Shown here piece by piece: positions 9,933-25,112 of a stretch of 64,000 bases of DNA. This DNA comes from Candidatus Kaiserbacteria bacterium (GTDB lineage: Bacteria; Patescibacteriota; Minisyncoccia; Phycocordibacterales; Phycocordibacteraceae), in the NCBI GenBank assembly GCA_027451665.1, contig DAIDIW010000002.1, forward strand, positions 212,254-276,253. Reading direction: 5' to 3'. Positions within the stretch are counted from its first letter, which is position 1. Each line of letters starts with the position of its first letter. The notes under the pieces were generated by a model. The model did not search any database. It had not been told where the DNA came from and saw nothing but the letters and a program-made list of their open reading frames with translations. The translations under genes were made by a program, and so were the position numbers.

Positions 9933-10541
9933 CTAGAACGTCATACCCGCGGGCGGCGTAAGGAGCGACGTGTCGATATTCCAGCTCGTACAGCTGAATG
10001 AAAGATTCGTGTTCGGATCAAGCGCGCCGTAACTTGCCATGACGCTTCCGTTGGCGCTCGTCGACGCCAGCAGCCTCAAGCCGCTCGTCGTGCTCGTGTA
10101 CCAGGCGTAGAGATAACTGCCGTCATCGAGCATCGAAGTAGCGACGGTACGGCCTCCAGGGACGCGAGCGATGTTTACCCGAGCTACGCCGTCAGCTACG
10201 AAGATATTCCCGGTCCGGCGTGCGCCATCGGCAAATCCGTCGAATGAACAGAAAAGGGGCTGCTTCTGGGTGCGCAAGTACGAAAGCGAATTAAAGCCCG
10301 TAAGCACGACTTTGGCCGTCATGGTCGGCGCTGGGGTTGACGCAGGCGCTGCCAGCCTCTTGGTCGTCACCTTCACGGCGGGCGTCGTGGGCGGTGTGCT
10401 GCTCGTAGCCATCGTCGTGGTTGCAGTCGCCGACGCCTGTCGTGTCGGCGATGACCAGTCCGTAGTGAAGTACCACGCACCAATAGCGAGCACGATGATG
10501 AGCACAGCCCATGCGAGTATCTGGTCTGTTTTCATATCCAT
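9933..10541 (-). CDS. hypothetical secreted/membrane-anchored protein with a Thr/Ala/Pro-rich linker
   Basis: Start MDMKTDQILAWAVLIIVLAIGAWYF (ATG 10541), then a TM, then TTTMATSSTPPTTPA. Confidence 0.5.
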   Translation of the reverse strand: MDMKTDQILAWAVLIIVLAIGAWYFTTDWSSPTRQASATATTTMATSSTPPTTPAVKVTTKRLAAPASTPAPTMTAKVVLTGFNSLSYLRTQKQPLFCSFDGFADGARRTGNIFVADGVARVNIARVPGGRTVATSMLDDGSYLYAWYTSTTSGLRLLASTSANGSVMASYGALDPNTNLSFSCTSWNIDTSLLTPPAGMTF

Positions 10542-10647
10542 ACCTCGCATGCTAGCACTCCACCGGGCATTATGAAGAACTGCAGAGAGCGCTTCGGGGA
10601 TTGCGGGCGAATGGCTTACCGCAGGGCGTATGCGCCGCCATAGGAAA

Positions 10648-10675
10648 GGGGTCCGTCGCGTACGCGACGGACCCC
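10648..10675. repeat. 13-bp perfect inverted repeat/hairpin at the left edge of the low-GC island
   Basis: ggggtccgtcgcg-t-acgcgacggacccc. No T-tract follows and no adjacent ORF ends here. Confidence 0.4.
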
Positions 10676-10949
10676 TCATTGCTGCCGGCATTCACTCATC
10701 GAGCAGCTCGCAACGGTCCTTCGGAAAGCAGAATTACTCCGAAGTCGTATATCTCAGCCCGCACCGGTCATCTCAATGTCACAAAGAGCGCAGTTGGGTT
10801 TCTGTGTGTGGACAGCCTGCATGGTAAATTTGATGAGGATGTCTGTGTGCCAATACTTAGCCTAATTGCTGAGATTTTGTACCGGCATCTTTGGAACTTG
10901 TCCGATTCCCTATGGGAATCATCGGAATAGCTGCATAAGGAGAGTGAAT

Positions 10950-11126
10950 ATGCCTACTAACGAGGGTCGTGCGCAAAAGAAAGGTCGCGATATCGGGTTC
11001 ACGTTCACGGAGGTCGGGACGATTACTTTTCCTAATGGGCAGACGGTGCCCAAGCTCGAAGGTCACCCGAACGATCCAGAAGCCCATCGCCGTCTCATGG
11101 AGCTAATCGAGAGTGAAGAAAACTAG
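10950..11126 (+). CDS. small hypothetical protein (58 aa)
   Basis: RBS AAGGAG 8 nt upstream of ATG 10950. A terminator follows. Sequence MPTNEGRAQKKGRDIGFTFTEVG. Confidence 0.4.
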   Translation: MPTNEGRAQKKGRDIGFTFTEVGTITFPNGQTVPKLEGHPNDPEAHRRLMELIESEEN

Positions 11127-11151
11127 GACGCCGGCAAAAAGATCCCCACTC

Positions 11152-11177
11152 GCGCCTGACACAGTCAGGCGCTTTTG
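11152..11177 (+). terminator. rho-independent terminator
   Basis: gcgcctgac-acag-tcaggcgc followed by TTTTG. Confidence 0.5.
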
Positions 11178-11200
11178 TTACGACACGAATGCATGGAGTA

Positions 11201-11245
11201 GCTAGGCAGCACTTTATGACGTGGTGTCATAAAGTGCTGCCTAGC
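11201..11245. repeat. perfect 20-bp inverted repeat with a 5-bp spacer
   Basis: gctaggcagcactttatgac gtggt gtcataaagtgctgcctagc. It lies between a small gene and an IS256 transposase remnant. Confidence 0.6.
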
Positions 11246-11360
11246 CAAGTACCGTTCGCGGGCAGAAAATTCTTGCATGCCTGCACGTTCCTGCCGTTTG
11301 CTCGATACCGTCAATCGTCCGGTTTAGTCGTCTCGTCTGCCAGCACGGCCTGTGTAAGGC

Positions 11361-11597
11361 TCAGGCGATGATCGAGGCGCAGCAGCACGCGCGGCAGTCG
11401 GGAGACGCCTCCATGCCGTAGATCTCGCGCAGATGCTCGCAGATCTCCCGCGTGCTCATGCCCCGGCCGTACATCGAGATGATCTTCTCATCAAAGCCCG
11501 GAAACCGGCGCTGATATTTGGCGATCAGCTGGGGATCAAAACGCCCCTCCCGGTCCCGCGACACCGCGATGTCCACCTTGCCCGTACTGGTGGTCAC
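11361..11597 (-). mobile_element. IS256-family transposase internal fragment (pseudogene remnant)
   Basis: DREGRFDPQLIAKYQRRFPGFDEKIISMYGRGMSTREICEHLREIYGMEASP matches the conserved IS256/mutator transposase core (DR.G.F.P.L..K.Q.R....D.I...Y..G.STR.I...L...YG...SP). Both the N- and C-terminal parts are missing. Confidence 0.65.
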
Positions 11598-11675
11598 GGC
11601 TCAAGGGGTTGACTTGCAAAACTTTCCGCCACTGATAAATTTGTTCTTGGAACGTTCTGTGAACAGGAGGAGCCA

Positions 11676-11930
11676 TTGTCATCACAGCAGTCACTACTTG
11701 CATCACAAATGACCCTGACGATTCACCTAAATCCAACCAAGGAAGATCGTCGAGCTGTCACTTTGCTTCAAGAATTCAATGGGTCCGTAGCAATCATGCG
11801 CCTTGCGGCAGAGAAGAAGTTACTGTTACCTTCACTTGAAGTGAGGGGTGCACAATTCAGTGGTATCGAGCAAATTGAGCAATTCGTGGACAGCGCCCGG
11901 TCCGAAGGCGCGCCTGCTATTGCAATCTAA
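11676..11930 (+). CDS. small hypothetical protein, possible TTG start
   Basis: AGGAGG is 4 nt upstream and a terminator follows downstream. 84 aa. Confidence 0.35.
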   Translation: MSSQQSLLASQMTLTIHLNPTKEDRRAVTLLQEFNGSVAIMRLAAEKKLLLPSLEVRGAQFSGIEQIEQFVDSARSEGAPAIAI

Positions 11931-11942
11931 TCGTTCGCTCTA

Positions 11943-11975
11943 AGAGCGCCCCTTTCCGGGGCGCTGTCTTTATCT
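11943..11975 (+). terminator. rho-independent terminator
   Basis: agagcgcccc-tttcc-ggggcgct followed by a T-rich tail. Confidence 0.5.
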
Positions 11976-12020
11976 GCATCTGACCTTCGCCGAGAAGCGC
12001 TCCTCTGGAGGACGTGACAG

Positions 12021-12425
12021 ATGAGCGAGTTTCAATCGGGCGTCACCGCACAAGACAAATACAAAACACTCAAAGACGGCACAGTCGCCAAGTACATCTA
12101 CTACGGCTGTACACGATCGAAGGACATACACTGTAAAGGTGGGTACCTCGAAGAAAAAGTACTGCTCGCCCAGTTGTTAGAGATAATTGAAAAGCTGGAT
12201 CTTGATAAGACCGGCATGCGTCGTCAACTCGAGACTGAGATTGAGCGACATAAGGAGTTCAACGCAAGAATCCTTGGTCGTAAAGACGACTACCGAGCCA
12301 AGGATGTTGATATACGAAACTACGCAAAATATATTCTTGAGAATGGGACTGTCTTTGAAAAAAGAAGTCTCCTAGATTGTTTGAAGACTAAGATAATTCT
12401 GAAAAATAAAACTATTAGTACCTGA
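12021..12425 (+). pseudogene. C-terminal fragment of a large serine recombinase (zinc-ribbon + coiled-coil region only)
   Basis: GTVAKYIYYGCTRSKDIHCKGGYLEEKVLLAQLLEIIEKL parallels GGVAHYTYYHCTKRKNPNCSQHSIEETKLEKQIAKELGKL in the intact recombinase at 23394-25031. It lacks the catalytic N-terminal domain and has its own GGAGG RBS. Confidence 0.55.
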
Positions 12426-12430
12426 TGGGA

Positions 12431-14203
12431 TTAGATGATAGACGACAAATTATCAAGGTTGACTCCACTAAGGGCAGATCCTGAGCCGCTTGGCGGTTCA
12501 GCTATTATGACTTTCTTGCCCTCTCCAAAACCAAGAGTGTAGGTGAATTTTCCTTCTTCGTAACTCATGCAATCTGGCAATAAAGTATCTTTCATTAGTT
12601 CTTCGTTCACCATTTTCTCGCCTGCATCGAGAAGTGGTTTTAGGTCAATGTAAAGCAATCTCCTCATTCTCTCTGCTTGTTCGCCGATCCATCCTTGTTT
12701 TTGGTTTCCGCCTGAAGCAAGATAAAACCCAATAAAGATCAGGTATGAACGCAACGCTGCGGGATAGTAACGTCTAATCACATTTGTGCCGATTTGTTCC
12801 CACATCCTTTTCTCGAATGGAGCACGATACCCTTCTTTTAACTGCGGGTCGTATATCATGCCGTGCAATAACTTTTGAACCGTGTGGTATGTATCATTGG
12901 ATTTCTTAATATAGGAAAGCTGATACATGCACTTGTATAAAGCAGCCGCAACACCTTCATTGATCGCTAAATCAGAATAGAAATTTGGCTCTTGGGCGGT
13001 TTTCTCTCGAGCGACGGTGTCGGTATTAAAGGTCTGATCGTTAGCAAGGTACAGATATCCATGCCCAAGGAAGTCTGCAATGATGCCCAAAGACCACCAC
13101 TCATCTTTTAGAGCATACTTTGTGTCTATTCCCCGCCTTTCTTCGATGTTTAGCTTTATACAGATATCAGCAAAAATATCGGCCAAATATTCAAAGCCAT
13201 TATTTATATGTCTTGGAGGAATTGCGCCTGTTTTCAAGTACGTTTCGATTGCTTCGGAAAGAGCCTTGATCAGCACTTCGATACCAGCGATACCAGTGTC
13301 CTTACGTTTAGCATGGCCAAGCGTTGGATAACCAAACAAATCAAAGTTAGTTAGCAGGATCGGAGATTTAAATACGGCCGTGTACACATTCGAAGAAAGA
13401 GCCAGCCCTTTATTGTCCAATTGTTTGTAGAAAAACGATTCATCATCATAGAAAAGACTGCTCATGAGCCTTGGAACTCCTATTCCTGATTGGCGCCGGC
13501 TTATACGATAATGCTCTATCGCGCCGAAAATATACAGGAGGCCGTCAAGGCGTTTTGTTGTTAGAAGGCGAACGATAGACTCATCACTTAAAACTACCTC
13601 GATGATTGAGATTGCATCTCCACTGAAGTCAGCCGATTTTGGATCGCGATTAACAGCGGCCTTGCAGACGGCGTCGAAATTTCTCAATAAAACCTCTAAA
13701 AGCGCGTTTAAACTCTCTTCGGTTGATCTAGAGATTTCTTGAACCATTACTTCATAGAATTTCCGAGATGTCTTTCTATTGAAAAGGCCTCGAGTCCTGC
13801 TTGCAAGGAACAACAAAGAAATGGGTGACGCGATGAAAAACAAATAAGCTAGGAGTTCATAGAAAAGAGTAAAATTCAGCGGGTAAGGCAAATACATCTC
13901 TGGGAATTGCGTGATGAGCACTCCAAGGAGAGTAAGAAAAAGTCCCATTCCTCCAAACACCCAAAACAGATTCCGTTCCCAGACGCTTCGAATTCTCAAA
14001 GCTATGTCCCACTTTGATCTTCTGAGCTGGTATACAGCAAAAATGAGACCGAAAGCAGCAAGGGCGGCTCCAAGATCAAGAGAGGATGGGAAGATGACTA
14101 TGTTGCCAGCACCACAAATAGGCTGAGAAGAGAAACTCAAGAGACAAGAGTGCAGGCCTGTACTGGATGCTTGTGTTAAGGTCGATATTTGAGTTTGGGA
14201 CAT
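12431..14203 (-). CDS. hypothetical 590-aa protein with three N-terminal TM helices and a large soluble domain
   Basis: GC is ~38-40% versus ~65% for the core. TM helices at ~45-65, ~85-105 and ~115-140. No recognisable motif in the ~440-aa C-terminal part. Confidence 0.55.
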   Translation of the reverse strand: MSQTQISTLTQASSTGLHSCLLSFSSQPICGAGNIVIFPSSLDLGAALAAFGLIFAVYQLRRSKWDIALRIRSVWERNLFWVFGGMGLFLTLLGVLITQFPEMYLPYPLNFTLFYELLAYLFFIASPISLLFLASRTRGLFNRKTSRKFYEVMVQEISRSTEESLNALLEVLLRNFDAVCKAAVNRDPKSADFSGDAISIIEVVLSDESIVRLLTTKRLDGLLYIFGAIEHYRISRRQSGIGVPRLMSSLFYDDESFFYKQLDNKGLALSSNVYTAVFKSPILLTNFDLFGYPTLGHAKRKDTGIAGIEVLIKALSEAIETYLKTGAIPPRHINNGFEYLADIFADICIKLNIEERRGIDTKYALKDEWWSLGIIADFLGHGYLYLANDQTFNTDTVAREKTAQEPNFYSDLAINEGVAAALYKCMYQLSYIKKSNDTYHTVQKLLHGMIYDPQLKEGYRAPFEKRMWEQIGTNVIRRYYPAALRSYLIFIGFYLASGGNQKQGWIGEQAERMRRLLYIDLKPLLDAGEKMVNEELMKDTLLPDCMSYEEGKFTYTLGFGEGKKVIIAEPPSGSGSALSGVNLDNLSSII

Positions 14204-14398
14204 CGTACCTCTGAATGATAGACCTTCTCACCGAAGAAGGCCAAGAATCAAGTATTGATCCCTCTAGGGCGTTCGAGAAGAAAACTAGTGGGCTGCGGGG
14301 CTTGGACGATGTTAGAACTGTCCTTTTGACTGGTAAATCGCATTTCGCATATAAAATCACCATACCAGATTTGTTAGCGCGGGTGTAAACTGCGACGG

Positions 14399-14878
14399 AT
14401 GGACGACCTCTCCAACTACGAAAAGCTCCGCGCGGACGCGCAGCAGTTCTATAACGGCTTACGCCCCGTATTCTCGCCCGCGCTCAATGAGAATGTTCAC
14501 TTCACCGCCGAGGGCTTCAATCACATTATTTTCAAGGGGTCGCGTCGGGAGCGCGAGAAGCCCTCACAGATAATGCGCTTCAAAATGCTGGCGCGAGCGG
14601 CCAAGCTCATTGGCCTCTCCACCACATATCAGGAGTACGAGGAAACGCTACATGATTTTGAGGTCAAGAGCCACAAGAAACGCGTCCGCAAATCCAAACC
14701 CGTAAAGTATTGGGGTATCATCGCTATCATTGATGGACGCAAGATAAAGGTTATCGTGCGTAAAATCGGCGATAACGGGCAGCTTCACTTCTGGAGTGTA
14801 GTGCCCGCGTGGACGACAAACAAATACCGCGACGCCAAGTTCATCACCACGATGAAGGGCGACCCCGAGGAGGATTAG
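14399..14878 (+). CDS. hypothetical protein
   Basis: 159-aa ORF with no recognisable motif. It lies in the island between the AT-rich TM protein and the nucleotidyltransferase. Confidence 0.4.
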   Translation: MDDLSNYEKLRADAQQFYNGLRPVFSPALNENVHFTAEGFNHIIFKGSRREREKPSQIMRFKMLARAAKLIGLSTTYQEYEETLHDFEVKSHKKRVRKSKPVKYWGIIAIIDGRKIKVIVRKIGDNGQLHFWSVVPAWTTNKYRDAKFITTMKGDPEED

Positions 14879-15081
14879 GCATATCAAAAAACACCACACG
14901 GGGTGGTGCTCTTTGATATGCCTGCCTTCGGCTTATGTATTAGCCGAATAGGGCTGACGCCCCACAGGCACGGAACTAGTATACCAGATTGGAGTGAAGC
15001 GGCAATGAGCTGGGGATTTCAAGCCTCGAGCCAAAAGCTTCAAGTTTACTCTTTCAGAAAGTCGTCCCCGAGAGGTATTAT

Positions 15082-15618
15082 TTGCGAATGGAAGCAACAT
15101 CGACGCTTGAACTCGCGAGCAGACTACTTGATTGGAAAGACTTGCTCTTGGCGGGATATTGGCTCGTTGGCGCTACTATTGTTGGCGTTTTGTTTCTCTG
15201 GTTCGTTTTTCGAAAACAGTGGCGCTTTTTCAAAAACATAAATAAACCCATCATCTTCATAAACCTGTCCGGTATAAGCGATGGGATGGACGTTGAAGCG
15301 AAGCTATTGCAGCGCAGTCGCTTCTTTTGTACACCGGAGGTTACGAGCGATTGTAGAAGCATCGACTTGGTCGAAAAGCAGAGCTTGGTCGTAATTGGTG
15401 TTAGCGATGCCACCGACGTGAAGCAGTTTGAGGCAATTTACCAAAAAATCGCTACACTCACGAAGCCGACTGTCATTTACACTCTAGGCGCACGTGGAAC
15501 CAGTTTCGTATCGAAAAGCGAGGCTCTCATAAAGGGATATTCTTTCCACACCATCGCCACGACGCCATTGCGTTTGGTAAGCGACATCTTCGCAATACTC
15601 TCTACATTCCCAGAATAA
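15082..15618 (+). CDS. hypothetical membrane-anchored protein (N-terminal TM + ~130-aa alpha/beta domain)
   Basis: TTG at 15082 or ATG at 15088. TM WLVGATIVGVLFLWFVF. Alternating beta/alpha pattern PIIFINLSGISDG...LVVIGVSDATDV...PTVIYTLGARGTSF, Rossmann-like. Its stop is 3 nt from the stop of the convergent nucleotidyltransferase gene. Confidence 0.4.
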   Translation: MRMEATSTLELASRLLDWKDLLLAGYWLVGATIVGVLFLWFVFRKQWRFFKNINKPIIFINLSGISDGMDVEAKLLQRSRFFCTPEVTSDCRSIDLVEKQSLVVIGVSDATDVKQFEAIYQKIATLTKPTVIYTLGARGTSFVSKSEALIKGYSFHTIATTPLRLVSDIFAILSTFPE

Positions 15619-15621
15619 GGG

Positions 15622-16398
15622 TCAGACGACCACTTGGTTCCAGTTGGTGCAACGAAGAGAAGCGGCAGCGGCATTTGCCACCAGACGCTTCTCGAGTGGG
15701 CTAAGCACGTCCGAAACAGCGTTGCTTCTATTCCCCGGGTCATATACTGTTGCAGTCTCGAAGTCGTCCCGCAAATATTCCAAGAAAGAAACAAATCGCT
15801 TCGAAATGGGTAAAAGAAGACCGAGTGGCATCGAGGCGTTCATGGCTGATAGCTCAAGGTAAAACGATGGAAAATCTAAATGGTGCTGGTCGCGCCAGAT
15901 TTTTGTGAGCTTCATTAAATCAGTCCGACCGGATTTCTTCACGGCCTCTATCTGCATACTCACGTTCGTCTTCACCCAAGTATTCTTTTTCCTCACGTAT
16001 ATCGAATGGTCGTTAGCGAGAAAAGCGCCACTTTGTAGCTTCCCGGGCACGAGGTCGACTTCTATAGCCCCGTAAGTGAGACCTATCGAAGAGTTTTGAA
16101 AGCGAGGTGAGTGACCGTTTGCCATCAAGAAGCTATGCAGGCTTTTATGGACATCGTTGAAGGTATAGGGAAGACCGGTTTTTAGGGAGATAAAAAGGTC
16201 TAAGTCAGCCGACCCTTTTATAGCAGTGCCCTTTGCATTAGAGCCAGAGAGTTGCACATAGTTTAGGTATGAGCCAGTCCATGCGCGTATGACCCTTTCG
16301 AGTTCGGACTGTGCATTACCCAAAGCAAACAGTCTCCGCAAATCAGTGGAAACCGAGTGACGCGTCAAGACGGAGTTTAGGTACGGGTCTGGGTTCAC
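15622..16398 (-). CDS. Pol-beta-superfamily nucleotidyltransferase of the cGAS/DncV-like (CD-NTase/SMODS/OAS-like) type, 258 aa, probable GTG start
   Basis: hG[GS]-x9-13-[DE]h[DE]h motif: SGSNAKGTAIKGSADLDLFISL. Third acidic residue in the OAS/CD-NTase-like [ED]VDLVP context: GAIEVDLVPGK. C-terminal helical domain with LMKLTKIWRDQHHLDFPSFYLELSAM, resembling the CD-NTase/OAS K.W....PSS..LE motif. GC ~47%. Confidence 0.6.
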   Translation of the reverse strand: MNPDPYLNSVLTRHSVSTDLRRLFALGNAQSELERVIRAWTGSYLNYVQLSGSNAKGTAIKGSADLDLFISLKTGLPYTFNDVHKSLHSFLMANGHSPRFQNSSIGLTYGAIEVDLVPGKLQSGAFLANDHSIYVRKKNTWVKTNVSMQIEAVKKSGRTDLMKLTKIWRDQHHLDFPSFYLELSAMNASMPLGLLLPISKRFVSFLEYLRDDFETATVYDPGNRSNAVSDVLSPLEKRLVANAAAASLRCTNWNQVVV

Positions 16399-16431
16399 TA
16401 GGGTATTTTACCTCGTCGAGCACACAAAAGC

Positions 16432-17124
16432 CTAGAAGAACTTCAAAAACTCCTTGGTACGCTGTTCTTGTGGGTTTGAGATAAGCTTCTTGTCGCCGCG
16501 CTCAATGACCGCGCCGCCATCCATAAAGACGATATGGTCGCTGACGCGCTTGGCGAAGTTGATGAGGTGGCTGACTAGGAGTATGCCTACGCCCGAAGCT
16601 CGGAGTTTCTCAAGTAACGCCGCAACACGCTCTATCTGCTCAATATCCAAGGCCGAAGTAATCTCGTCAAGCAGAAGATATTTTGGTTTGAGCGCGATTG
16701 CTCGTGCGACTGCCGCACGCTGACGCTGACCAAGAGAGGTCTGATTAGGATAGCGGTCAATAAACGCTTCCATCCCGAGGGCTGCGACCAGCTCTGCAAT
16801 TTCGTCTTTAGTTGAGAGTTTTGCTAGAGTAATGTTCTGCCACAGCGTTAGATGAGGCCATAGGAATAGCTGCTGGAACACCATCGCCACGCGTGGCGAG
16901 GGGTGAGAGAGAACCTTGTCGTCCACCCGCACCTCTCCACTATCAGGAGCGTCCACCCCCGAAAGCACATTGAGCAGGGTGGTTTTGCCCGCGCCGCTCG
17001 GCCCGATAAGCGATACGATGCTGCTCGGCTCAATGGAAATATCTATGCTGTTCAAAATCAACCGTCCATCGCGCTTCTTTCCTATGTTGTGTGCGGTCAG
17101 CATACTAGCGTTCGGAGAAATCAC
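16432..17124 (-). CDS. ABC transporter ATP-binding protein (polar amino acid type)
   Basis: Walker A GPSGAGKTT, signature LSGGQRQRAAVARA, Walker B LLLDE. Confidence 0.85.
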   Translation of the reverse strand: MISPNASMLTAHNIGKKRDGRLILNSIDISIEPSSIVSLIGPSGAGKTTLLNVLSGVDAPDSGEVRVDDKVLSHPSPRVAMVFQQLFLWPHLTLWQNITLAKLSTKDEIAELVAALGMEAFIDRYPNQTSLGQRQRAAVARAIALKPKYLLLDEITSALDIEQIERVAALLEKLRASGVGILLVSHLINFAKRVSDHIVFMDGGAVIERGDKKLISNPQEQRTKEFLKFF

Positions 17125-17767
17125 GAGTAAATCGCTCTCTCAAAACGTAGGCAAGATAGTAGAGCGGTGCAAGCACGAGCATAAAGAATATCGCGAGCGT
17201 AGTGTAAATCTCTACGGGTCGGTAGAGAACGGCATTGAGGTTCTGTGCTACGCGGAAAATCTCGGGAACCGAAATCAAGCTGGCGAACAGGGTAGCTTGC
17301 AAAATAAACAACTGCGTCGTGAGAACAGACGGGATGATTTGACGAAAAATCATCGGGAACTGGATGCGTCTGAAGATGTCGTTACTGGATAGCCCTGCCA
17401 TTTGTGCCGCGACGATGTACTGCTTCGGGAAGTCGGTGAGCACTCCTCTCACCAGTTCTGCGATAGCCGCGATGTTCACGATTGCGAGGGTGAGCACGGC
17501 CGTCAGGAACGGGCTAATCAAAATGCCGAGAAGCGACTGGAATGGATAGTAAAACCAGAACAGGAGAACGAGCAGCGGGATACCCGCCACAATGAACGAG
17601 GCCGTTTTGACCACCGCCCCTGCGGTTGGATTTCTCGCGCCCAGCACCCCAAACCCTGCGCCAAGGACAATACCGAGAACGGATACCGACAAGAACAGCT
17701 CAACGCTTACCAAGAGGCCTCCGAGAAGCGTTGGGTAGTAGTTCACCAGTATGCCGAGAACGGACAT
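17105..17767 (-). CDS. ABC transporter permease (His/Glu/Gln/Arg/opine family)
   Basis: Multi-TM, EAA-like region, overlaps the ATPase gene by 20 nt. Confidence 0.8.
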   Translation of the reverse strand: MSVLGILVNYYPTLLGGLLVSVELFLSVSVLGIVLGAGFGVLGARNPTAGAVVKTASFIVAGIPLLVLLFWFYYPFQSLLGILISPFLTAVLTLAIVNIAAIAELVRGVLTDFPKQYIVAAQMAGLSSNDIFRRIQFPMIFRQIIPSVLTTQLFILQATLFASLISVPEIFRVAQNLNAVLYRPVEIYTTLAIFFMLVLAPLYYLAYVLRERFTRDFSER

Positions 17768-17772
17768 TGTTG

Positions 17773-18630
17773 TTATTGCGCGTAGGGCGTTGCGGGCAGG
17801 AGATACGAATTAGATGAGGACTGATACTTGGCGACGATTTTTGCGACTGCGCCATCGTCTATGGCCTCTTGAAGCGCGACATTGAGCATCTGTTCCAAGC
17901 TACTTTCGCCAAGCGCAACCGCGTAGGCGTTTCCATAAAGGCGGAGTGGTGGAGTTTGGAGCTGACGCAGGGTGCCTGGGTTTGCTTGCAAGAACTCGGC
18001 GGCAGCATCGGGTTGTAAGAACGCAACATCGGCCTTGTTATCAATCACTTGGAGCGGGATTTGGTCAAAGGGCGCAGTCTGCGGCAGGCTGACCTGCTGC
18101 GCTTTTGGGTAATCCGATTGGGCGATTACTTGGCCGAGTTCACCGTCCTGTGTTGAGATTTTCACCGATGGGTCATTTATTGCCGCGAGATTGTTGTCAA
18201 AGCGATGGTCGCTTGTTCGCACATAGGCGTAGACGCCATTGTAGAACGCAGGGATGGTGAGATAGCCCGCCTTAGCGCGTGTGGAGTTAGCCCACAGACC
18301 GCCGCCAAACACATCGTAGCGACCTGCCGAAAGGTCGGTAAAAATCGTGCCGTATCCTGCCTCCTCAACCCACTGCACTTTCAAGCCGAGCTGTGCGGCA
18401 AGCGTGTTAGTGAGGTCATAGAAGATGCCCGAGAGCGCCCCTGTTTTCGGGTCTTGGATAACATACGGCGGATACGGGATGTAGCCAACGCGCATCGTGC
18501 CTGAGGAAATCACCTTGTTGAAGGCGGTATTTGAGGCAGTGGTTCCTTGCGAGCTATGGGTAAAGAGACCGACTACAATCGCAATAACGGCGAGGCCGAT
18601 AGCGATGTAGGAAAGGGTTTTATTTTCCAT
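17773..18630 (-). CDS. ABC transporter substrate-binding protein (family 3, amino acid)
   Basis: Signal/TM anchor then GTMRVGYIPYPPY...LSGIFYDL...AGRYDV. The start was chosen at MENKTLS (ATG 18630) to avoid overlap with the upstream gene. Confidence 0.75.
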   Translation of the reverse strand: MENKTLSYIAIGLAVIAIVVGLFTHSSQGTTASNTAFNKVISSGTMRVGYIPYPPYVIQDPKTGALSGIFYDLTNTLAAQLGLKVQWVEEAGYGTIFTDLSAGRYDVFGGGLWANSTRAKAGYLTIPAFYNGVYAYVRTSDHRFDNNLAAINDPSVKISTQDGELGQVIAQSDYPKAQQVSLPQTAPFDQIPLQVIDNKADVAFLQPDAAAEFLQANPGTLRQLQTPPLRLYGNAYAVALGESSLEQMLNVALQEAIDDGAVAKIVAKYQSSSNSYLLPATPYAQ

Positions 18631-18643
18631 ACAAAATATTGTA

Positions 18644-19336
18644 TCACCCCACTTGTGGTGCAGTAGCAAAGACAATGATTTCAGATGGCACCTCCACTAC
18701 CTCGGCCGAGTAGCCCTTCTCGGCAAGGAAGCTCTGTATCGTAGCGAGATACTTTTCGGGAAGATGTGGGTCAATGCCTTGCGAGGCGTAGTCATACATT
18801 CCCTTCACCAATCCGCCCTCAATGTTGTAGCCGTTGGAGATGGAGTAGATGACGAACGACCTCGCGACGCGCACGCTTTCTTCAAGCGCCTGTCGGGTAT
18901 CAAGGTTGGAGGCGTGGATTGCCCGCATAGAAACATATCCGTCGAAACTCTTATCGGGGAACGGCAGATGCTGGATGTCGCCGTGGACGACGCGGACTTC
19001 GGGATGCTTCTCGGAAATCTTTCCGAGCGCCGTATCGCTCAAATCCAGTGCAGTGATTTCAAAGTCCTTGAAGAACGGGATTTCAGCACCGCTATTTGCG
19101 CCAGCGATAAGGACTGACGGCCGTCCTGCACCCTGCACTGACGGCAGCACCTTCTCGACAAGCGCAGTCAGGGCGTCATCAAACTTGTGCTCGGTATCGA
19201 GTGCCCGCGCATCTTTTGCATACTCAAAATCGCCGTATTTCTCATTGAGCCGCGCGACCAGTTCGGGCAGTTTGTCTGACCGATTTGCTTGCGAGATTTG
19301 AGGGGCGGGGTTCTTCTGAAACCAGTTCCAGCGCAT
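18644..19336 (-). CDS. class I SAM-dependent methyltransferase
   Basis: VLIAGANSGAEIPFF...LDLSDTAL...VHGDIQHLPFPDKSFD (motifs I/II/III). Confidence 0.7.
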   Translation of the reverse strand: MRWNWFQKNPAPQISQANRSDKLPELVARLNEKYGDFEYAKDARALDTEHKFDDALTALVEKVLPSVQGAGRPSVLIAGANSGAEIPFFKDFEITALDLSDTALGKISEKHPEVRVVHGDIQHLPFPDKSFDGYVSMRAIHASNLDTRQALEESVRVARSFVIYSISNGYNIEGGLVKGMYDYASQGIDPHLPEKYLATIQSFLAEKGYSAEVVEVPSEIIVFATAPQVG

Positions 19337-19360
19337 ATTACATTCGTATTTATGAAAGTG

Positions 19361-19840
19361 TCAGTCAATGAACCCACCGTGGTATGTGGCACGGTAAAGA
19401 GATTTACCGTTAAGTGAAATCTCCTCCGCGCCGCCGAAACGGTCAAGCTCGCCGTCTACGGCATTGCGATAAAGCCAGCCACCTTCCTGATGCACGGAAG
19501 GGCCGCGCACGGGAATTACGCTGCCGTGTGGTTGCATCAATGCCTTGCGCAGAAAATTGTAAACCTCCTTCTCGCTCGTGGCAGGGTCAAGGATGTAGCC
19601 GTAATAGTTCATCCCCCACACAGGCGTACCGCTCTTGTAGACAATCTCTCCACCGATGAAATCCCGTCCGCCGAAATAAGTGTCGTGGTAGGTGAGGTTG
19701 CCCTGCTCAAAGTGATAATCATCGGAGCGCGGGCGTGATGAAGGGGCTTTAGCGGCGTCCTTATTGGCGTAGGTGCTTTTGTTAGCGGCATCCAAGAAAC
19801 GCGTGAGTTCTTGAAGGTCAAGGGGGTTTGCGGCATCCAT
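19361..19840 (-). CDS. hypothetical protein
   Basis: 159 aa with no recognisable motif. Confidence 0.45.
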   Translation of the reverse strand: MDAANPLDLQELTRFLDAANKSTYANKDAAKAPSSRPRSDDYHFEQGNLTYHDTYFGGRDFIGGEIVYKSGTPVWGMNYYGYILDPATSEKEVYNFLRKALMQPHGSVIPVRGPSVHQEGGWLYRNAVDGELDRFGGAEEISLNGKSLYRATYHGGFID

Positions 19841-19869
19841 AACACCACTTTACCACCACCCGTCGTTTT

Positions 19870-20430
19870 TTATTTACCGAGGTCTACGAGCACTGTGCCA
19901 CCTCCCCAAATGCTGCCGTTGTACTGGAACTGCAAGCCCGTAGCGGTCTTGGGTATTTCAAACCCAACCCAGCCCGTGCGTTTGCTGTTAGCGATAATTG
20001 CGCCGTCTAGCGAGCTGCTCGGGTTTGACAGTTCCTTATCCGTAGCTGTTACCTGATAGCTATTGCCCTGCGCATCGCGGACGAACATCTGCCCTAGCGT
20101 TGTAACGTACTGCTGTGAGGATGACGTGTTTTGGATAGTTATGTTGAGGTCAAGCCACTCGTTGCCCGCGCTCGGAGAAGTAAACTGCCCACCGTCCGAA
20201 TAGCTGACACTGTTGACGGTGATGACCGAGCTGCCGAGCTGGATTTGGTCGCCGACCTTGTAAGTCGTCTGCGCCGTCTGTTGCGCAGGCGCTGCGGCGA
20301 TGCCATTGCTCCCGACCTTCTCGCTTGAAGGCGAGCTGCTCGCGCCGATGATTATGAGTACCACGAGAACCAAGCCCCAGAACCACCATCGTTTATAAAA
20401 CTTCTTCTTTGCTCCTTGTTGATTTTCCAT
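19870..20430 (-). CDS. membrane-anchored DUF4352-like (Ig-like beta-sandwich) protein
   Basis: N-terminal TM WWFWGLVLVVLIIIGA then YKVGDQIQLGSSVITVNSV...EWLDLNITIQN...GWVGFEIP. Confidence 0.5.
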   Translation of the reverse strand: MENQQGAKKKFYKRWWFWGLVLVVLIIIGASSSPSSEKVGSNGIAAAPAQQTAQTTYKVGDQIQLGSSVITVNSVSYSDGGQFTSPSAGNEWLDLNITIQNTSSSQQYVTTLGQMFVRDAQGNSYQVTATDKELSNPSSSLDGAIIANSKRTGWVGFEIPKTATGLQFQYNGSIWGGGTVLVDLGK

Positions 20431-20703
20431 ACGAGCGGCTAATGGATAAATCCAAGGGCGGGTACAGGAAACCCGCCACTAGGAAGGCCTTGCGGCCTCT
20501 ATAGGAGTTTCCCCCTATAACGCGATGAACGCCCTAATGACGGGTTTGCTAGGTTCATCGCGATTTTTGACCATACCTTGCGGCAGAGCGCCACTAGGGT
20601 TAGGTCAGCATCAACCTTTACCGGCTGACGGGTACCATCTTAACACGTCAAAACTCGGCTTTGAAAACAGCTCGAGGAAGCGTAGATTTGAGGCAAAGAT
20701 TCA

Positions 20704-21447
20704 ATGAACCCCGAACAGAAAATCAAGCACGAAATCTGGCTCGTATTACAGCAGCTCAAAGAGGACTATCTGCTTACACCCGAGAATAACTACGCGGTCT
20801 ACGAAATCGCACAAGCCCGCGAGCACCCTAACTTCCCAACGCTTCATAATCAACTCAAAATCCTAAAGAAGCTAGAGCACGATGGAGCACTCAAGATAGT
20901 GCGCAGCTACTACGTAACTCGACGTGGCACGAGCCTCGCGGACGCAGTTGATTTTGGTATGTACCACGACGCAGACCCGAAAGGTATTTTGCTTGGTGTG
21001 CTGTTTCCGAGGTTTGATGAGCTATATGCCGAGTATTCGCAATACAGCGCCGAACCGATAACGCCTGAGATTGAGACAAAAAAGTACGTCATTGAGCTCA
21101 AAGACCGAGGGGTTTGGGTCAATGAATTTCTATTGAGCAGGCCGCACGCTACCGGTAAGAATATGGGCTTCTTTGAGTACGTGTTTGAGCATCCCGACAA
21201 ACTCATCTCACGCGATAGTTTGCCGAAGTTCGTACAACAGGACGTAGCCGCCCGCAGTTTTTCCAAGGTGCTCAATGACCTCGGCTTCAAGGGTGAGATA
21301 CTCAAGGTATTCTTCCCCGAACGGGGTAAAAGTCAGCTGCGGTTCAGAAAGGAAGTCACCTTGAGCCAGCTCGCTAAAAGCGGCATAAATACCGACTTGC
21401 TATTACAGGAGCTACGCCTCGCGCATTTGAAGAGCAGTCCGAAATAG
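20704..21447 (+). CDS. hypothetical protein (possible N-terminal winged-helix)
   Basis: 247 aa. It is the first of five co-directional genes ending in the serine recombinase. Confidence 0.45.
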   Translation: MNPEQKIKHEIWLVLQQLKEDYLLTPENNYAVYEIAQAREHPNFPTLHNQLKILKKLEHDGALKIVRSYYVTRRGTSLADAVDFGMYHDADPKGILLGVLFPRFDELYAEYSQYSAEPITPEIETKKYVIELKDRGVWVNEFLLSRPHATGKNMGFFEYVFEHPDKLISRDSLPKFVQQDVAARSFSKVLNDLGFKGEILKVFFPERGKSQLRFRKEVTLSQLAKSGINTDLLLQELRLAHLKSSPK

Positions 21448-21516
21448 TCCGAAGTCATCCAGTTCAATCCGGAAACCAAGACCGCTTTATTTCAACGACC
21501 ATACTGCCAAGACAGT

Positions 21517-21702
21517 ATGGTCGTTTCTGATGCCCACATCGCCGAGTTCCAAAAACTCTACAGGGAGCATTTTGGCATTGAACTCCCGAAAGCGCAAGCG
21601 CTTGAGAAGAGCATCCGTCTCGTCCGTCTGATTGAAACCGTCAGCCGCGCTCTTGCAAAGGAGCAGGCCGAAATCCCTACCAACCTAATACCACCAACAT
21701 AA
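21517..21702 (+). CDS. small hypothetical protein
   Basis: 61-aa ORF directly abutting the next ORF (stop/start 21702/21704). Confidence 0.3.
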   Translation: MVVSDAHIAEFQKLYREHFGIELPKAQALEKSIRLVRLIETVSRALAKEQAEIPTNLIPPT

Positions 21703-21703
21703 T

Positions 21704-22063
21704 ATGGAAACGCGTGATGATACCCAGCCTGCAACCGAAGAAGATATGAAAGCAACCTTTAAGAGCAGCGAGTGGCAGAAGTTAAAGGTTCTCATTGATG
21801 AGACAGAACAGCAAATGGAAGCGATGAACCTCGTCCCACTCAATAAGGGCGGTGAACAATATATCCGCGACCGCTACCCAATCGCCGTGCTCTATCACCG
21901 AGCTTATCTTCAAGATGTTGCGATGACCGAGTGCAATACGATGCTCACAGAAGAAGAAATCCAAAATATAGGATGCTCCTTCTTTGACGACTTTCCGGAT
22001 GAAATTTGGCTTGCGATTATCGAAGCAGTGAAGTTGGTCGTCAGCGAGCGCAATTCCTCTTGA
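21704..22063 (+). CDS. hypothetical protein
   Basis: 119-aa acidic protein, co-directional. Confidence 0.35.
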   Translation: METRDDTQPATEEDMKATFKSSEWQKLKVLIDETEQQMEAMNLVPLNKGGEQYIRDRYPIAVLYHRAYLQDVAMTECNTMLTEEEIQNIGCSFFDDFPDEIWLAIIEAVKLVVSERNSS

Positions 22064-22112
22064 GCTGCCTCGCAGGGTTCCTTGAAAAACACCGACAACA
22101 ACGAAAACAGCT

Positions 22113-23279
22113 ATGGATACCGTCATCATCAAACTCAATGGGTTCAAAGTCGCCAACATCTCGCTATTCCTGCCAGAACTCAATAAGCGTCGTTTCCAAG
22201 ACCTCTCGCCTACGGAGCGGCAGTCAACGCGTACTTACCTCCGTGCGTTTCGCTTTGAACCACCACACCAAGACGCGTACCTGCCAAAAATAGAGGTTTA
22301 CGAGGCACTGAATGATGACCGTAACGAGCTAACCTACACACTCCAAGCGAGGTTCTCTGTCCCGAAGCTCCTCTACGGCAACAGCGTGCAGGAGGTGAAC
22401 GATAACGACCTTGAACGCGTCATCTATGCTTTTACGAAGGCGCTAACAGGAGCAGGCATTGTCGTCAGTAGCACGACCGTCGCTAATGCTCGCGTTTCGC
22501 AGGTGGACTTCTGCAAAAATATAATCCTGCCACGCGACATACGGATGCAGGAGGTCTTGACCGAGTTGCAGCGCACAGATATCAGCAAAGCGATTGATAT
22601 GACCCAGAAGGAGTACAAGCACGGTGGCCGTACTCTCCACATTTATTCGCAAACCGTGGAGCGTGTCTTTTACGACAAGGTGAACGACGCCACGCGGCCC
22701 AAGGGCAAACGCAAGGATAAAGGGCATATTGAGCGCGAACGCGAAGTGATAGACCGCTATGGGTTAGCGAACCGCGAGATTTTCCGCTACGAGTATCGCT
22801 TGAAGAAAAATCAGGCCGTGAAGCAGAAAGTGAACGCCGCACTTAGGCGACCGTATCCAACAGTCGTTCAACTCAAAGACCTTTTCACGCCCAACCTTTG
22901 CAAAACGATTTTATTGCAATCGTGGCGCGACCTCATCCAACGCCCCGAGAACCAGCTCGCACTTCTCGGCCCAAAGGACGACCTTGCGCTCCTGCAGCAC
23001 ATAATGGGTGGAGCGCGTGAGCAGGGCGCGGTACACAGTATGAACCGTGCTTTCACCTCCTACGGCCTTACACGCGCCATACGCGACCACGGAGCAAAAG
23101 AAGTGCGTAAGGCAGCTGCGGGTTGGAACGCCAACCACGGCGAGCGCCTTACCAAGAAAATGAGAGTTGCGGCCGCACTTACCGAAGGGCTGCCGTATTC
23201 AAATAGTATCGCCGTTGTGTCTGCGTCACTTGAGCAGTTTGAGTACATTTCCCTTTCAACACTTGAAAATGTGGTATAA
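22113..23279 (+). CDS. hypothetical protein, possibly a replication-initiator-like protein of the integrated element
   Basis: 388 aa, placed immediately upstream of the recombinase. The Rep call is from position and size only. No firm motif was recognised. Confidence 0.35.
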   Translation: MDTVIIKLNGFKVANISLFLPELNKRRFQDLSPTERQSTRTYLRAFRFEPPHQDAYLPKIEVYEALNDDRNELTYTLQARFSVPKLLYGNSVQEVNDNDLERVIYAFTKALTGAGIVVSSTTVANARVSQVDFCKNIILPRDIRMQEVLTELQRTDISKAIDMTQKEYKHGGRTLHIYSQTVERVFYDKVNDATRPKGKRKDKGHIEREREVIDRYGLANREIFRYEYRLKKNQAVKQKVNAALRRPYPTVVQLKDLFTPNLCKTILLQSWRDLIQRPENQLALLGPKDDLALLQHIMGGAREQGAVHSMNRAFTSYGLTRAIRDHGAKEVRKAAAGWNANHGERLTKKMRVAAALTEGLPYSNSIAVVSASLEQFEYISLSTLENVV

Positions 23280-23393
23280 TAAACTCGTTGACCCACTTGT
23301 GAGCCGTTTGTCGCCAGAGGTTTTATCATTTATAGATAGCGGGGCGAAAGGGGCGGTCTGCCACTATCTGTATTCCTCTGGTTTACGGCATAA

Positions 23394-25031
23394 GTGGGTC
23401 AACCAGACCGTCCCTTTTGCTATATGAAAACTCACCAAAAAATCAAATACTTCGCCTACCTCCGTAAGTCGTCGGAAGGAAAAGAAAAACAGGCGCTCTC
23501 CATTCCTGCGCAACGTGCCCAGCTTTCAGAGCGCTTCTCTGATTTAGATATTGAGTTTGTGGAAGAGGAACGTAGCGCTTTTCTGCCACTCAATCGGCCG
23601 AGGTTCAGCGATATGCTCCTGCGCGTCCGTAGTGGCGAGCGGCAAGGACTGCTCGCGTGGCATCCCGACCGCCTTTCTCGCAATGAGGTGGATGCGAGCG
23701 CGATTACTTATATGCTCCGCACGGGCGAACTCAAAGACCTCAAGTTTGCCACCTATCATTTTGAGAACAACTCGCCCGAGGGTATTTGGATGTTGCAAAT
23801 GGCACTCTCGCAGTCGCAATACGAGAGCGCGAAGAAGGGGCGCGATGTGAAGCGCGGTACCGCACAGAGCGCAAAGAGCGGTTTTTATCCCGCGCCAGCA
23901 CCTATCGGATACCTCAATGACAAGTTCACCGAGCGTGGAAAGAAAAAGAAGCGCCCCGACCCCGAGCGCTTTGCTCTCACACGCAGACTTTTTGACTTGA
24001 TGCTGACAGGCAACTATACGCCTCCGCAAATCCACGACATAGCCGTAAACGAGTGGGGCTTCCGTGGGCCGAAGGGCCGCAAACTTTCCCGCAGTAGTGT
24101 CTACAACATCTTCACTCGGCCGTTCTATTTCGGCGAGTTCGAGCATCCCGCAGGAAGCGGTATTTGGTATAAAGGCGACCACGAACCGATGATTACCCGC
24201 GAGGAATATGACCGTATCCAGTTCCTGCTTGGGCGTAAGGGTAACCCGCGACCGAAGGAACATAAAGACATCGCTTATCGCGGCCCCATGAAATGCGGCG
24301 AATGCGGAGCAGCGATTACCGCCGAGGAGAAGATGAAAAAGCTCGCCAAGGGCGGTGTCGCACACTATACCTACTACCACTGCACTAAGCGCAAGAACCC
24401 GAACTGCTCGCAGCATTCCATTGAGGAGACAAAGCTGGAAAAGCAAATCGCTAAGGAACTTGGGAAGCTCAAAATCCCCGCTGGCTTTACCGCGTGGGCG
24501 GTCGCGCGGCTGAAAGACCAGAACGCCAAAGAGATTACTGACCGCGAGGTGGTCTACAGCAATCAACGCAAGGAGTACGAGGCATGCGTCCGCAAGATAG
24601 ACAACCTGATTGATATGCGGGCAAACAGCGAGATTGACGAGCAGGAGTTCAGGAGCAGAAAGGAAACGCTTCTCGCCGAAAAGGAACGCACTCAAGCACT
24701 CCTGCTAGACACAGACAAGCGCGTAGAGAATTGGCTTGAGGTCGCAGAGCGCGGCTTCAATTTCGCAGAGAAAGCGCCAGCCGTATTCGCCAAGGCAGCG
24801 GCAGATGAGGACTTTGCGACCTGCAAGGAGATATTTACGGCTCTGGGTTCGAACTACACGCTCATAGACGGAAAGTTGAGCATTTCCTTGGATAATCTGC
24901 TGTTCCCGATACAGGAAATCGCGGATGCAATCTGCGACATTCCCTCTCCGTTAGAACTAGAGAAAAACAAAGGAGATGCAAAGGATTTCGGACAACTCTA
25001 CGCCGAAAATCCACGAGTGCTGGGGGACTAG
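23394..25031 (+). CDS. large serine recombinase (phage/ICE-type integrase)
   Basis: N-terminal resolvase catalytic motif YLRKSSEGKEKQALSIPAQ (Y.R.S....Q). Recombinase domain. Zinc ribbon (KCGECG...YYHCTKRKNPNC). Coiled coil. The stop codon overlaps the 3' end of tRNA-Gln. Confidence 0.8.
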   Translation: MGQPDRPFCYMKTHQKIKYFAYLRKSSEGKEKQALSIPAQRAQLSERFSDLDIEFVEEERSAFLPLNRPRFSDMLLRVRSGERQGLLAWHPDRLSRNEVDASAITYMLRTGELKDLKFATYHFENNSPEGIWMLQMALSQSQYESAKKGRDVKRGTAQSAKSGFYPAPAPIGYLNDKFTERGKKKKRPDPERFALTRRLFDLMLTGNYTPPQIHDIAVNEWGFRGPKGRKLSRSSVYNIFTRPFYFGEFEHPAGSGIWYKGDHEPMITREEYDRIQFLLGRKGNPRPKEHKDIAYRGPMKCGECGAAITAEEKMKKLAKGGVAHYTYYHCTKRKNPNCSQHSIEETKLEKQIAKELGKLKIPAGFTAWAVARLKDQNAKEITDREVVYSNQRKEYEACVRKIDNLIDMRANSEIDEQEFRSRKETLLAEKERTQALLLDTDKRVENWLEVAERGFNFAEKAPAVFAKAAADEDFATCKEIFTALGSNYTLIDGKLSISLDNLLFPIQEIADAICDIPSPLELEKNKGDAKDFGQLYAENPRVLGD

Positions 25032-25090
25032 GATTCGAACCTAGATTGACGGGACCAAAACCCGCTGTCCTACCATTAGACGATCCCCCA
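25020..25090 (-). tRNA. tRNA-Gln (anticodon TTG)
   Basis: The reverse complement folds as a cloverleaf: acceptor TGGGGGA/TCCCCCA, anticodon loop TTTTGGT, T-arm GGTTCGAATCC. It resembles E. coli tRNA-Gln. Confidence 0.8.
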
Positions 25091-25112
25091 ATGTGCGGAC
25101 CTACGCACTCTA

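Follow-up and report, generated by a model that had tools for sequence, protein, structure and literature searches.

A gene for a large serine recombinase (LSR) lies in the 64-kb stretch of DNA analysed here (the window) with the last 13 nt of its open reading frame (ORF) overlapping the 3' end of a tRNA-Gln gene. The locus raises the question of which DNA the enzyme brought with it, and where exactly that DNA entered the chromosome. The original prediction was of one ~14-kb island starting at 10.65 kb. Comparison with related loci points instead to 14292-25022 (10.7 kb) as the recombinase's own element, with the DNA at 10.7-14.3 kb being separate and older. With a probability of about 0.8, as judged from sequence comparison, a plasmid-like mobile element has integrated at 14292-25022 in a bacterium of the candidate phyla radiation (CPR; Paceibacterota/Kaiserbacteria-like), with the terminus of tRNA-Gln as its chromosomal attachment site (attB) and an LSR gene that was split on integration.

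The recombinase

ORF 23394-25031 encodes Resolvase, Recombinase and Zn_ribbon_recom domains, each scoring above the Pfam cut-off (PF00239 with E=4e-17, PF07508 and PF13408). The ORF and its overlap with the tRNA were as first described, but the length given then (545 aa) was not sustained, as the lengths of homologues favour the ATG at 23424 as the start of a 535-aa protein. A database search returned 2443 homologues at E<1e-20, and the window LSR is 91% identical to one of these, P0001. In an alignment of 58 homologues (A1), the motifs of the catalytic Ser and Arg residues, Y-x-R-K-S and P-D-R-L-S-R-N, are invariant or nearly so, and the zinc cysteines C285, C288, C314 and C322 are invariant. 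The nearest structures are two of the A118 integrase, 4KIS (to which the zinc-ribbon region aligns) and 6DNW. The nearest named families are CcrB and XisF, but the CcrB match reaches only 72 bits against a cut-off of 900, and the protein is remote from the named subfamilies. By all sequence criteria tried, the enzyme is a member of the LSR family. It had been called intact, and this holds for the catalytic residues but not for the gene, the last 30 codons of which have been cut off and are now found at 14296-14385.

Attachment sites

A metagenome scan provided 77 related loci, 60 of which were scanned with ARAGORN for tRNA genes; the count of tRNA linkages given below is our own (L numbers denote loci fetched for comparison). 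Conservation of the LSR coding sequence extends in all loci to ...AATCCANNNNTGCTG (peptide ...N-P-x-x-L-L), where the tRNA 3' end follows directly. In L108, the LSR tail runs on into GGATACTTGGATGACGTTAGAACC instead of the tRNA. When the window was scanned for this post-tail sequence of L108, one strong match was obtained (21/28 nt at 14292-14319, GCTGCGGGGCTTGGACGATGTTAGAACT), which was unique in the window and was matched by 0 in 100 shuffles. The left junction of the element (attL) was accordingly placed at 14292, and the right junction (attR) at the tRNA-Gln gene, which was found on the minus strand at ~25.02-25.09 kb as predicted (Table 1).

The order at attR is LSR 3' end, GCTG, tRNA-Gln 3' terminus, and at attL it is GCTG followed by the detached last 30 LSR codons. 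The two junctions are identical over GCTG only. In each attL/attR pair available (window, L090, L092 and L121), the sequences differ at once on both sides of GCT(G/C), and the exchange was therefore confined to those four bases. The element is thus bounded, on this comparison, by two hybrid att sites sharing only GCTG. At attL, the core is followed by bases (CGGGG...) that are unable to pair with the 5' acceptor strand of the tRNA, while those at attR pair with it. Hence all of the tRNA is host DNA, the exchange having affected only its 3' trailer, and attB would be the 3' terminus of tRNA-Gln, positions 71-74. The predicted attP of the free element reads ...CCACGAGT-GCTG-CGGGGCTTGGACG..., and the predicted attB of the empty site reads ...AACTAGTGG-GCTG-GGGGACTAGGATTCG.... 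In our own reading of the sequences, the reconstructed attP (TCCACG-agtGCTGcgggg-CTTGGA) and the reconstructed attB of the window (aaCTAG-tggGCTGgggga-CTAGGA) both consist of hexamers arranged symmetrically on either side of a 12-nt spacer with TG at its centre.

No direct repeat of the tRNA 3' end had been found by eye. This was confirmed by a search of the 64-kb window, which revealed no second copy even when 3 mismatches in 25 nt were allowed, and by repeat finders run over 8-27 kb, which detected no tRNA 3'-end repeat. Such a repeat is missing because the core shared by attL and attR is only 4 bp, and its absence does not argue against integration. The label of a classic integrase-next-to-tRNA arrangement does not apply, since that arrangement is the one produced by tyrosine integrases, whereas here the recombinase is a serine enzyme, the core is 4 bp and the tRNA is not duplicated. 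No tyrosine recombinase (Phage_integrase) gene is present in the window element.

A crossover inside the tRNA, with its 3' part supplied by the element, was also considered. It was suggested by the overlap of the LSR with the tRNA and by an extra copy of the tRNA-Gln 5' part in L081, and was ruled out because attL and attR differ right after GCTG in every pair and the attL bases cannot pair. In L081 the extra copy, at 5047-5077, covers the acceptor strand and the D arm, with 22 nt exact; it is separated by 140 bp from the intact tRNA, on its host side, and the crossover model offers no explanation for it. L097 and L107, tried as representatives of the attP form, carry a different type of element left arm (P') without the LDDVRT tail, and were of no help in locating the attL of the window.

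The detached 3' end of the recombinase gene

Since the core at attL is followed in frame by the 30 codons missing from the resident gene, attP of the free element was placed inside the 3' end of the LSR gene. As read from the sequence, attP lies within the recombinase's own coding sequence, and integration cut the last 30 codons from a protein of ~563 aa. In their place at attR stand the codons G-D-stop, antisense from the T-stem of the tRNA; in hosts with tRNA-Gln(CTG) the LSR read-through is 16 codons longer. The detached tail matches the C-terminus of the uninterrupted homologue P0028 (locus L162) at 22/30 residues, and a six-frame translation of the window contains its motif once only. Relative to L162, 23 codons differ, with 15 synonymous and 8 nonsynonymous changes, and the predominance of synonymous differences indicates that coding has been maintained in the tail.

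Among the 120 best homologues, 18 have the tail fused to the body of the protein (e.g. P0028, ...NPRMLRGLDEVRTVLLAGKSSFQYKISISELLATV), 52 end in antisense-tRNA peptides (...DLDSNQD...SYH), and about 30 stop just inside the tRNA. An AlphaFold2 model of P0028, built with 58 homologues (mean pLDDT 80), predicts helices at 347-454 and places the integration junction inside a further helix at 524-539 (pLDDT about 86).

The LSR and the tail at 14.3 kb might be unrelated relics, the tail being what remains of a second, deleted LSR and the resident LSR being immobile, domesticated or decaying. Tails without an LSR in L004 and L019, tail arrays in L133 and L045, the N-terminally shortened LSR of L135 with its nearby tail, and the fact that no excised form was seen would fit such a history. 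It is nevertheless unlikely, as the tail begins exactly at the core, at the point where the resident LSR departs from its conserved sequence and in the same frame, and the sequence upstream of the tail is not LSR-like. In addition, the tail is closest to those of the resident LSR's own subclade (P0028 type), the synonymous excess indicates maintained coding, and the LSR ORF is uninterrupted and as similar to homologues found elsewhere as noted above.

Two loci with a full-length LSR gene were located at L162 10001-18058 and L108 158-1879. In L162, a tRNA-Gln(CTG) gene lies 6.3 kb further on, past a block that has no LSR and includes a PemK toxin gene. A second element landing between an older LSR and the tRNA, and thereby re-fusing the tail, is a possible origin that would fit both L162 and L108.

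Table 1. Positions of features in the variable region beside tRNA-Gln.
Feature	Position	Strand	Basis or remark
Perfect palindrome, 15+15 nt, left edge of variable region	10647-10676	.	Not an att site of the LSR element
IS256-family transposase fragment	11361-11597	-	Transposase_mut E=5e-20, profile positions 70-136 of 379
134-aa fragment of a different LSR lineage (zinc ribbon and coiled coil)	12021-12425	+	37% to resident LSR residues 306-362
590-aa membrane orphan, outside the element	12431-14203	-	43% GC; older insert
attL core GCTG, junction of left flank (B arm) and predicted element left arm (P')	14292-14295	+	Sole exact identity between junctions
Detached LSR 3' end, L-RGLDDVRTVLLTGKSHFAYKITIPDLLARV-stop	14293-14388	+	LSR frame; last 30 codons 14296-14385
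159-aa cargo protein, weak LPD3-like match	14399-14878	+	PF18798 E=0.0017, below cut-off
178-aa membrane protein, candidate effector of a cyclic-oligonucleotide-based antiphage signalling system (CBASS)	15082-15618	+	PADLOC PDLC01057 (trans-membrane) E=1.5e-11
CBASS-type oligonucleotide cyclase (CD-NTase)	15622-16398	-	PADLOC PDLC00803 E=1e-73, full length
Three-gene polar-amino-acid-type ATP-binding cassette (ABC) importer	16432-18675	-	Pfam SBP_bac_3, BPD_transp_1, ABC_tran
S-adenosylmethionine (SAM) methyltransferase, DUF5680 protein, DUF4352 protein (cargo)	18644-20430	-	Pfam above cut-off
LOOT RNA (Rfam RF03000)	20484-20606	-	80.5 bits vs gathering 46.4; model 1-121 of 121
Core module start: 247-aa, 61-aa (21517-21702) and 119-aa proteins	20704-22063	+	Homologues in LSR loci
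388-aa Rep-like protein (Phage_CRI / G2P N-terminal)	22113-23279	+	PF05144 26 bits vs 21.7 cut-off
LSR, integrated C-terminally truncated form, 535 aa	23424-25031	+	Pfam Resolvase, Recombinase, Zn_ribbon_recom
attR core GCTG = tRNA positions 71-74 (C71, A72, discriminator G73, C74), other strand	25019-25022	+	
tRNA-Gln(TTG), host target (B' arm), complete	25019-25090	-	ARAGORN; Rfam 61.6 bits

Recurrence in related loci

An antisense tRNA gene is found at the LSR end, or a few nt before it, in about 45 of the 60 metagenome loci scanned. The tRNAs are of the Gln, Asn, His, Asp or Trp type, and the type varies with the LSR subclade, being Gln (CTG or TTG) where the LSR is at least 64% identical to that of the window, Asn for one subclade of 64-66% identity and some LSRs of 45-49%, and His, Asp or Trp for more distant ones. 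In L081-L084 (LSRs 83-91% identical), the LSR runs antisense through tRNA-Gln(CTG) in differing chromosomal neighbourhoods, and the sequence at 21516-25085 of the window shares 79% nucleotide identity with L081. L011, from a relative of the window host, has an LSR that is only 40% identical and overlaps tRNA-Gln by 31 nt. Many contigs stop within 100 nt of the LSR/tRNA junction, as expected for a polymorphic site. A detached tail is found on the strand of the LSR and upstream of it in L089 (at least 6 kb away), L090 (11.0 kb), L092/93 (8.7 kb) and L121 (9.8 kb). The LSR element belongs to a widespread CPR family.

Several relatives carry relics of this element family. Tails without any LSR are present in L004 and L019, and in L135 the LSR lacks the N-terminal 254-264 residues (alignment starts at 255-265) and a tail lies 500 bp upstream. 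Arrays of tails (VDDVRT or WDEVGT peptides, representing P' arms), spaced by 0.5-1.3 kb, occur in L133 (five copies, 555-3698), L045 (three, at 16459, 17123 and 18065) and L039 (two, at 13343 and 14467), and L004 has copies at about 14350 and 16050. The L133 array is upstream of an LSR abutting tRNA-Asp, the L004 copies are downstream of tRNA-Gln, and no tRNA was found adjacent to the arrays of L045 and L039. The arrays have the look of scars left by successive integrations into a single site, or of small cassettes that are mobilised in trans.

In L094 (3598-3708) and L095 (11587-11815), the tRNA-Gln right after the LSR is broken by GC-rich palindromic insertions of ~26 nt, located in the T-loop and near the D arm, and L095 has a second, intact tRNA-Gln(TTG) 145 nt further on. 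L083 (643-1014) and L084 (1-320) include bAvd and a reverse transcriptase (RVT_1) beside methylase/helicase sets, possibly a diversity-generating retroelement.

The variable slot beside tRNA-Gln and its older contents

The dnaX gene adjoins the tRNA gene, and its product is 75% identical to DnaX of Candidatus Paceibacterota/Kaiserbacteria-type metagenome-assembled genomes (MAGs); the window therefore derives from a CPR (Patescibacteria) bacterium. As in the window, tRNA-Gln follows dnaX in 15 relatives. In six of the relatives with enough sequence, synteny resumes beyond the tRNA with the orthologue of the gene at 8279-9490 after a variable gap, which is 0.7-1 kb in L013 and L015 and 3-6 kb in L004, L005, L006 and L010, as against 15.5 kb in the window. 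The slot between tRNA-Gln and this conserved gene is thus, by comparison of these loci, a genuine strain-variable hot spot, and the view that a block of horizontally acquired DNA fills it in the window is upheld. The gene at 9933-10547 has homologues close to the same tRNA in L003 and L009, and for this reason was taken as host or old resident DNA.

The GC content of 10650-25100 is 50.7%, compared with 59.0% in the rest of the window, and falls to minima of 41.8% among 500-bp windows and 35.5% among 200-bp windows. A drop from ~10.7 kb to tRNA-Gln had been described correctly, but the core value of 62-66% given with it was too high, the flanks being 58.5-59.1%. The composition is not uniform across the region, as the blocks 10701-12020 (53.6%), 12021-14291 (43.2%) and 14292-25022 (51.9%) differ from one another and from the host (59%).

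These steps bear on whether 10.65-25.1 kb could be a single classic tRNA-linked island that arrived in one event and whose attL has decayed or been deleted. The GC content is lowered along the whole stretch, the recombinase lies at the tRNA end, and the missing tRNA repeat could mean decay. However, this is very unlikely, given that there is a specific attL at 14292 homologous to the P' arms of six other loci, that the GC steps are sharp, that the left block carries a fragment of a different LSR lineage and a fragment of an IS256 transposase, and that related elements span 8.7-11 kb. The alternative already offered in the original prediction, that the region may be a mosaic of several acquisitions, is upheld.

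At the left edge, a hairpin with 13-bp arms had been reported at 10648-10675 as marking the GC drop. It is real, and its arms are in fact 15 nt, but it is not the boundary of the element. The segment 10701-12020 contains the IS256 fragment, which had been recognised correctly, and small ORFs. To the left of this fragment, an inverted repeat at 11201-11245 (GCTAGGCAGCACTTTATGAC / GTCATAAAGTGCTGCCTAGC) has perfect 20-nt arms and a 5-nt loop. The recombinase fragment at 12021-12425, likewise recognised, is 66% identical to L033:5498-5884 and 48% identical to L024 16867-17247, both of which are downstream of tRNA-Gln. The hot spot is therefore used by at least two lineages of recombinase, the second of which is also found downstream of the tRNA-Gln of other Paceibacteria. 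The gene for the 590-aa orphan has a GC content of 43.1% rather than the ~40% first given, and its product has no family in Pfam, PADLOC or NCBIfam and no homologue in any fetched locus. What is left at 10.7-14.3 kb is debris from DNA that reached this hot spot earlier.

Cargo and core module of the element

The cargo begins next to attL with the 159-aa protein, homologues of which (32% identity) adjoin tRNA-Asn-linked LSRs in L127-L129. The CD-NTase-like gene proposed earlier was confirmed by a full-length PADLOC cyclase match, though the assignment is weak in Pfam (SMODS, 21.7 bits against a cut-off of 26.5) and below the cut-off in NCBIfam (CBASS_cyclase_a, E=1.7e-11). The ABC importer has its best NCBIfam matches to the GlnQ/GlnP, TcyN and Ehu types, all below the equivalog cut-offs. 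In relatives the cargo is different, including methylase/helicase sets, bAvd and reverse transcriptase.

LOOT RNA is also present in other LSR elements, at L081 12-133, L092 4819-4941 (L092/93), L095 3081-3207 and L097 16246-16364, always on the strand opposite to the core module and at the divergent junction of cargo and core. A role as cis-regulator of one gene family was ruled out, as the downstream genes differ (DUF4352, SNase, methylase, bPH_2). The element may encode LOOT as a small RNA that serves in replication or in the control of copy number. A hairpin follows the window LOOT at 20457-20477. No description of the motif was found in the open-access text of papers naming LOOT.

In the core module, the 61-aa ORF has homologues in 30 of the fetched LSR loci, and the 247-aa and 119-aa ORFs are shared with L081. 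The Rep-like gene, also proposed earlier, was confirmed by its Phage_CRI match. It occurs in 11 LSR loci, and other loci hold a Toprim primase or a Phage_integrase protein at the same position. An 18-nt inverted repeat (23284-23301 / 23389-23406; 89% complementary, 87 nt apart) lies between the Rep-like and LSR genes, in an intergenic region that is conserved at the nucleotide level in L082-L088, and may represent an operator or an origin.

Phages commonly encode serine integrases, the Rep match is of Phage_CRI type, and the relative L097 encodes a weak small-terminase-like helix-turn-helix protein. Even so, a temperate CPR phage present as a prophage is the least probable of the explanations considered. 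Genes for capsid, portal, tail, large terminase and inovirus morphogenesis are all missing from the 10.7 kb, IMG/VR holds no close relatives of the LSR, the best having 40-42% identity, and relatives exchange cargo and replication modules, as plasmids and integrative elements do. Given the lack of virion genes and the distance of the IMG/VR relatives, the element was assigned as an integrative plasmid-like element rather than a prophage.

Proposed mechanism

By sequence comparison, integration leaves the mature tRNA untouched, swaps only its 3' trailer and splits the LSR gene. In the favoured explanation, the full-length enzyme (~563 aa) would be made solely from the uninterrupted gene and would drive the integrative attP x attB reaction. 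The truncated form, which lacks a conserved C-terminal helix and whose gene faces convergent transcription of the tRNA, may have reduced or altered activity, and this would stabilise the insertion. Excision would restore the full gene and may need the 61-aa protein as a directionality factor, and the Rep-like gene and LOOT RNA could serve replication or control of the free circle.

A broader proposal, which is possible but would have to be held as tentative, is that a large clade of CPR serine integrases forms a counterpart of the integrase of phage Mx8 and the archaeal "suicidal" integrases described below, with integration toggling the LSR between full-length and truncated forms as a switch of directionality or stability. 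As only the tRNA half-site is conserved, elements could land repeatedly at the same tRNA, and serial landings would stack older elements outward, giving the tail arrays of L133, L045 and L004 and the re-fused genes of L162 and L108.

A number of observations weigh against the favoured explanation. Both junctions were placed by comparison alone, and the left half-site of attB, in the tRNA trailer, is not conserved between hosts, though serine integrases normally read both half-sites. The part removed amounts to only 30 of about 563 residues and includes no domain of known function, and the truncated enzyme could be fully active. The uninterrupted genes inspected (L108 and L162) sit in chromosome-like contexts and not in demonstrable circles, and 11 LSR loci that comprise whole contigs, including the uninterrupted L108, have no terminal overlaps and yielded no circles. 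No recombination directionality factor was identified, the 61-aa ORF being the sole candidate and its role a guess. A scan of the element for promoters and terminators was not enriched over shuffles, and for this reason no claim is made for promoters. Finally, the genes for the cyclase and the candidate effector are convergent and 3 nt apart, and do not form a co-directional operon.

Comparison with known systems

Like the LSRs of phages and of integrative and conjugative elements (Bxb1, phiC31, A118/LI Int, SCCmec Ccr and XisF), the enzyme combines resolvase catalytic, recombinase and zinc-ribbon domains with a long coiled coil, its gene lies at one end of the element, and the identity between the att sites is very short. 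It differs from them in having a tRNA 3' terminus as target and not a protein-coding gene, in the predicted location of attP inside the recombinase ORF, and in an extra C-terminal helical extension of ~70 aa. In a large survey of LSRs, targets were defined as protein-coding genes and tRNA was never mentioned (PMC10083194). Attachment sites linked to tRNA genes are regarded as the hallmark of tyrosine integrases, for which 25-76 bp of the tRNA 3' end are duplicated (PMC8092301). The window element resembles the tRNA islands of tyrosine integrases in its site at the tRNA 3' end, the adjoining integrase gene, the functional tRNA and the strain-variable hot spot, but it lacks any duplicated segment of the tRNA. 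Keyword searches of open-access papers returned no serine integrase that has attP in its own gene or integrates into a tRNA gene, and no CPR/Patescibacteria serine recombinase of such a kind, though a precedent may exist. A tRNA-terminus target and a gene that spans its own attachment site are both unusual for serine integrases.

Serine integrases are valued for genome engineering for their short sites and because no host factors are needed. A clade recognising tRNA 3' termini would add natural, near-universal landing sites, and a C-terminus that the enzyme itself changes on integration would add a self-contained control of directionality. Mobile elements of CPR/Patescibacteria have barely been described, and the present comparison provides an element family with exact predicted ends. 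The element shows a route by which CPR symbionts with small genomes may gain CBASS-like defence and nutrient-uptake genes, and the orphan LOOT RNA gains a genomic home.

The closest parallels for the split gene are found among other enzymes and in other hosts. The IntP/IntX integrase of Myxococcus phage Mx8 has attP within int, and integration gives the gene a new 3' end and yields a modified enzyme (PMC6070905). The window element is similar in its predicted attP within the integrase gene and in the changed C-terminus after integration, but Mx8 uses a tyrosine recombinase and a long common core, whereas here the recombinase is a serine enzyme, the core is 4 bp and 30 codons are exchanged. The attB of Mx8 reportedly overlaps tRNA-Asp genes, a finding attributed to Magrini et al. 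in 1999. In the integration-dependent immunity of mycobacteriophages, attP is located in a gene, the altered C-terminus of the product switches its behaviour, and the tRNA is sometimes transcribed in the direction of the truncated gene (PMC8092301). There, however, it is the repressor that is truncated and the integrase is usually a tyrosine enzyme, while here the recombinase itself is truncated.

The "suicidal" integrases of archaeal SSV1, pTN3 and pT26-2 have the site in their own gene, which is partitioned on integration, and usually target tRNA genes; the complete gene acts as a built-in control of directionality, and such enzymes are described as exclusively archaeal (PMC8371274). The LSR of the window shares with them an attP that, as reconstructed, lies inside the integrase's own coding sequence. 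They are, however, archaeal tyrosine recombinases (PF16795) with long cores, and are divided between a large Int(N) and a catalytic Int(C), whereas the enzyme described here is a serine recombinase of a CPR bacterium that would lose its last 30 codons. The published confinement of self-disrupting recombinases to Archaea would thereby be challenged.

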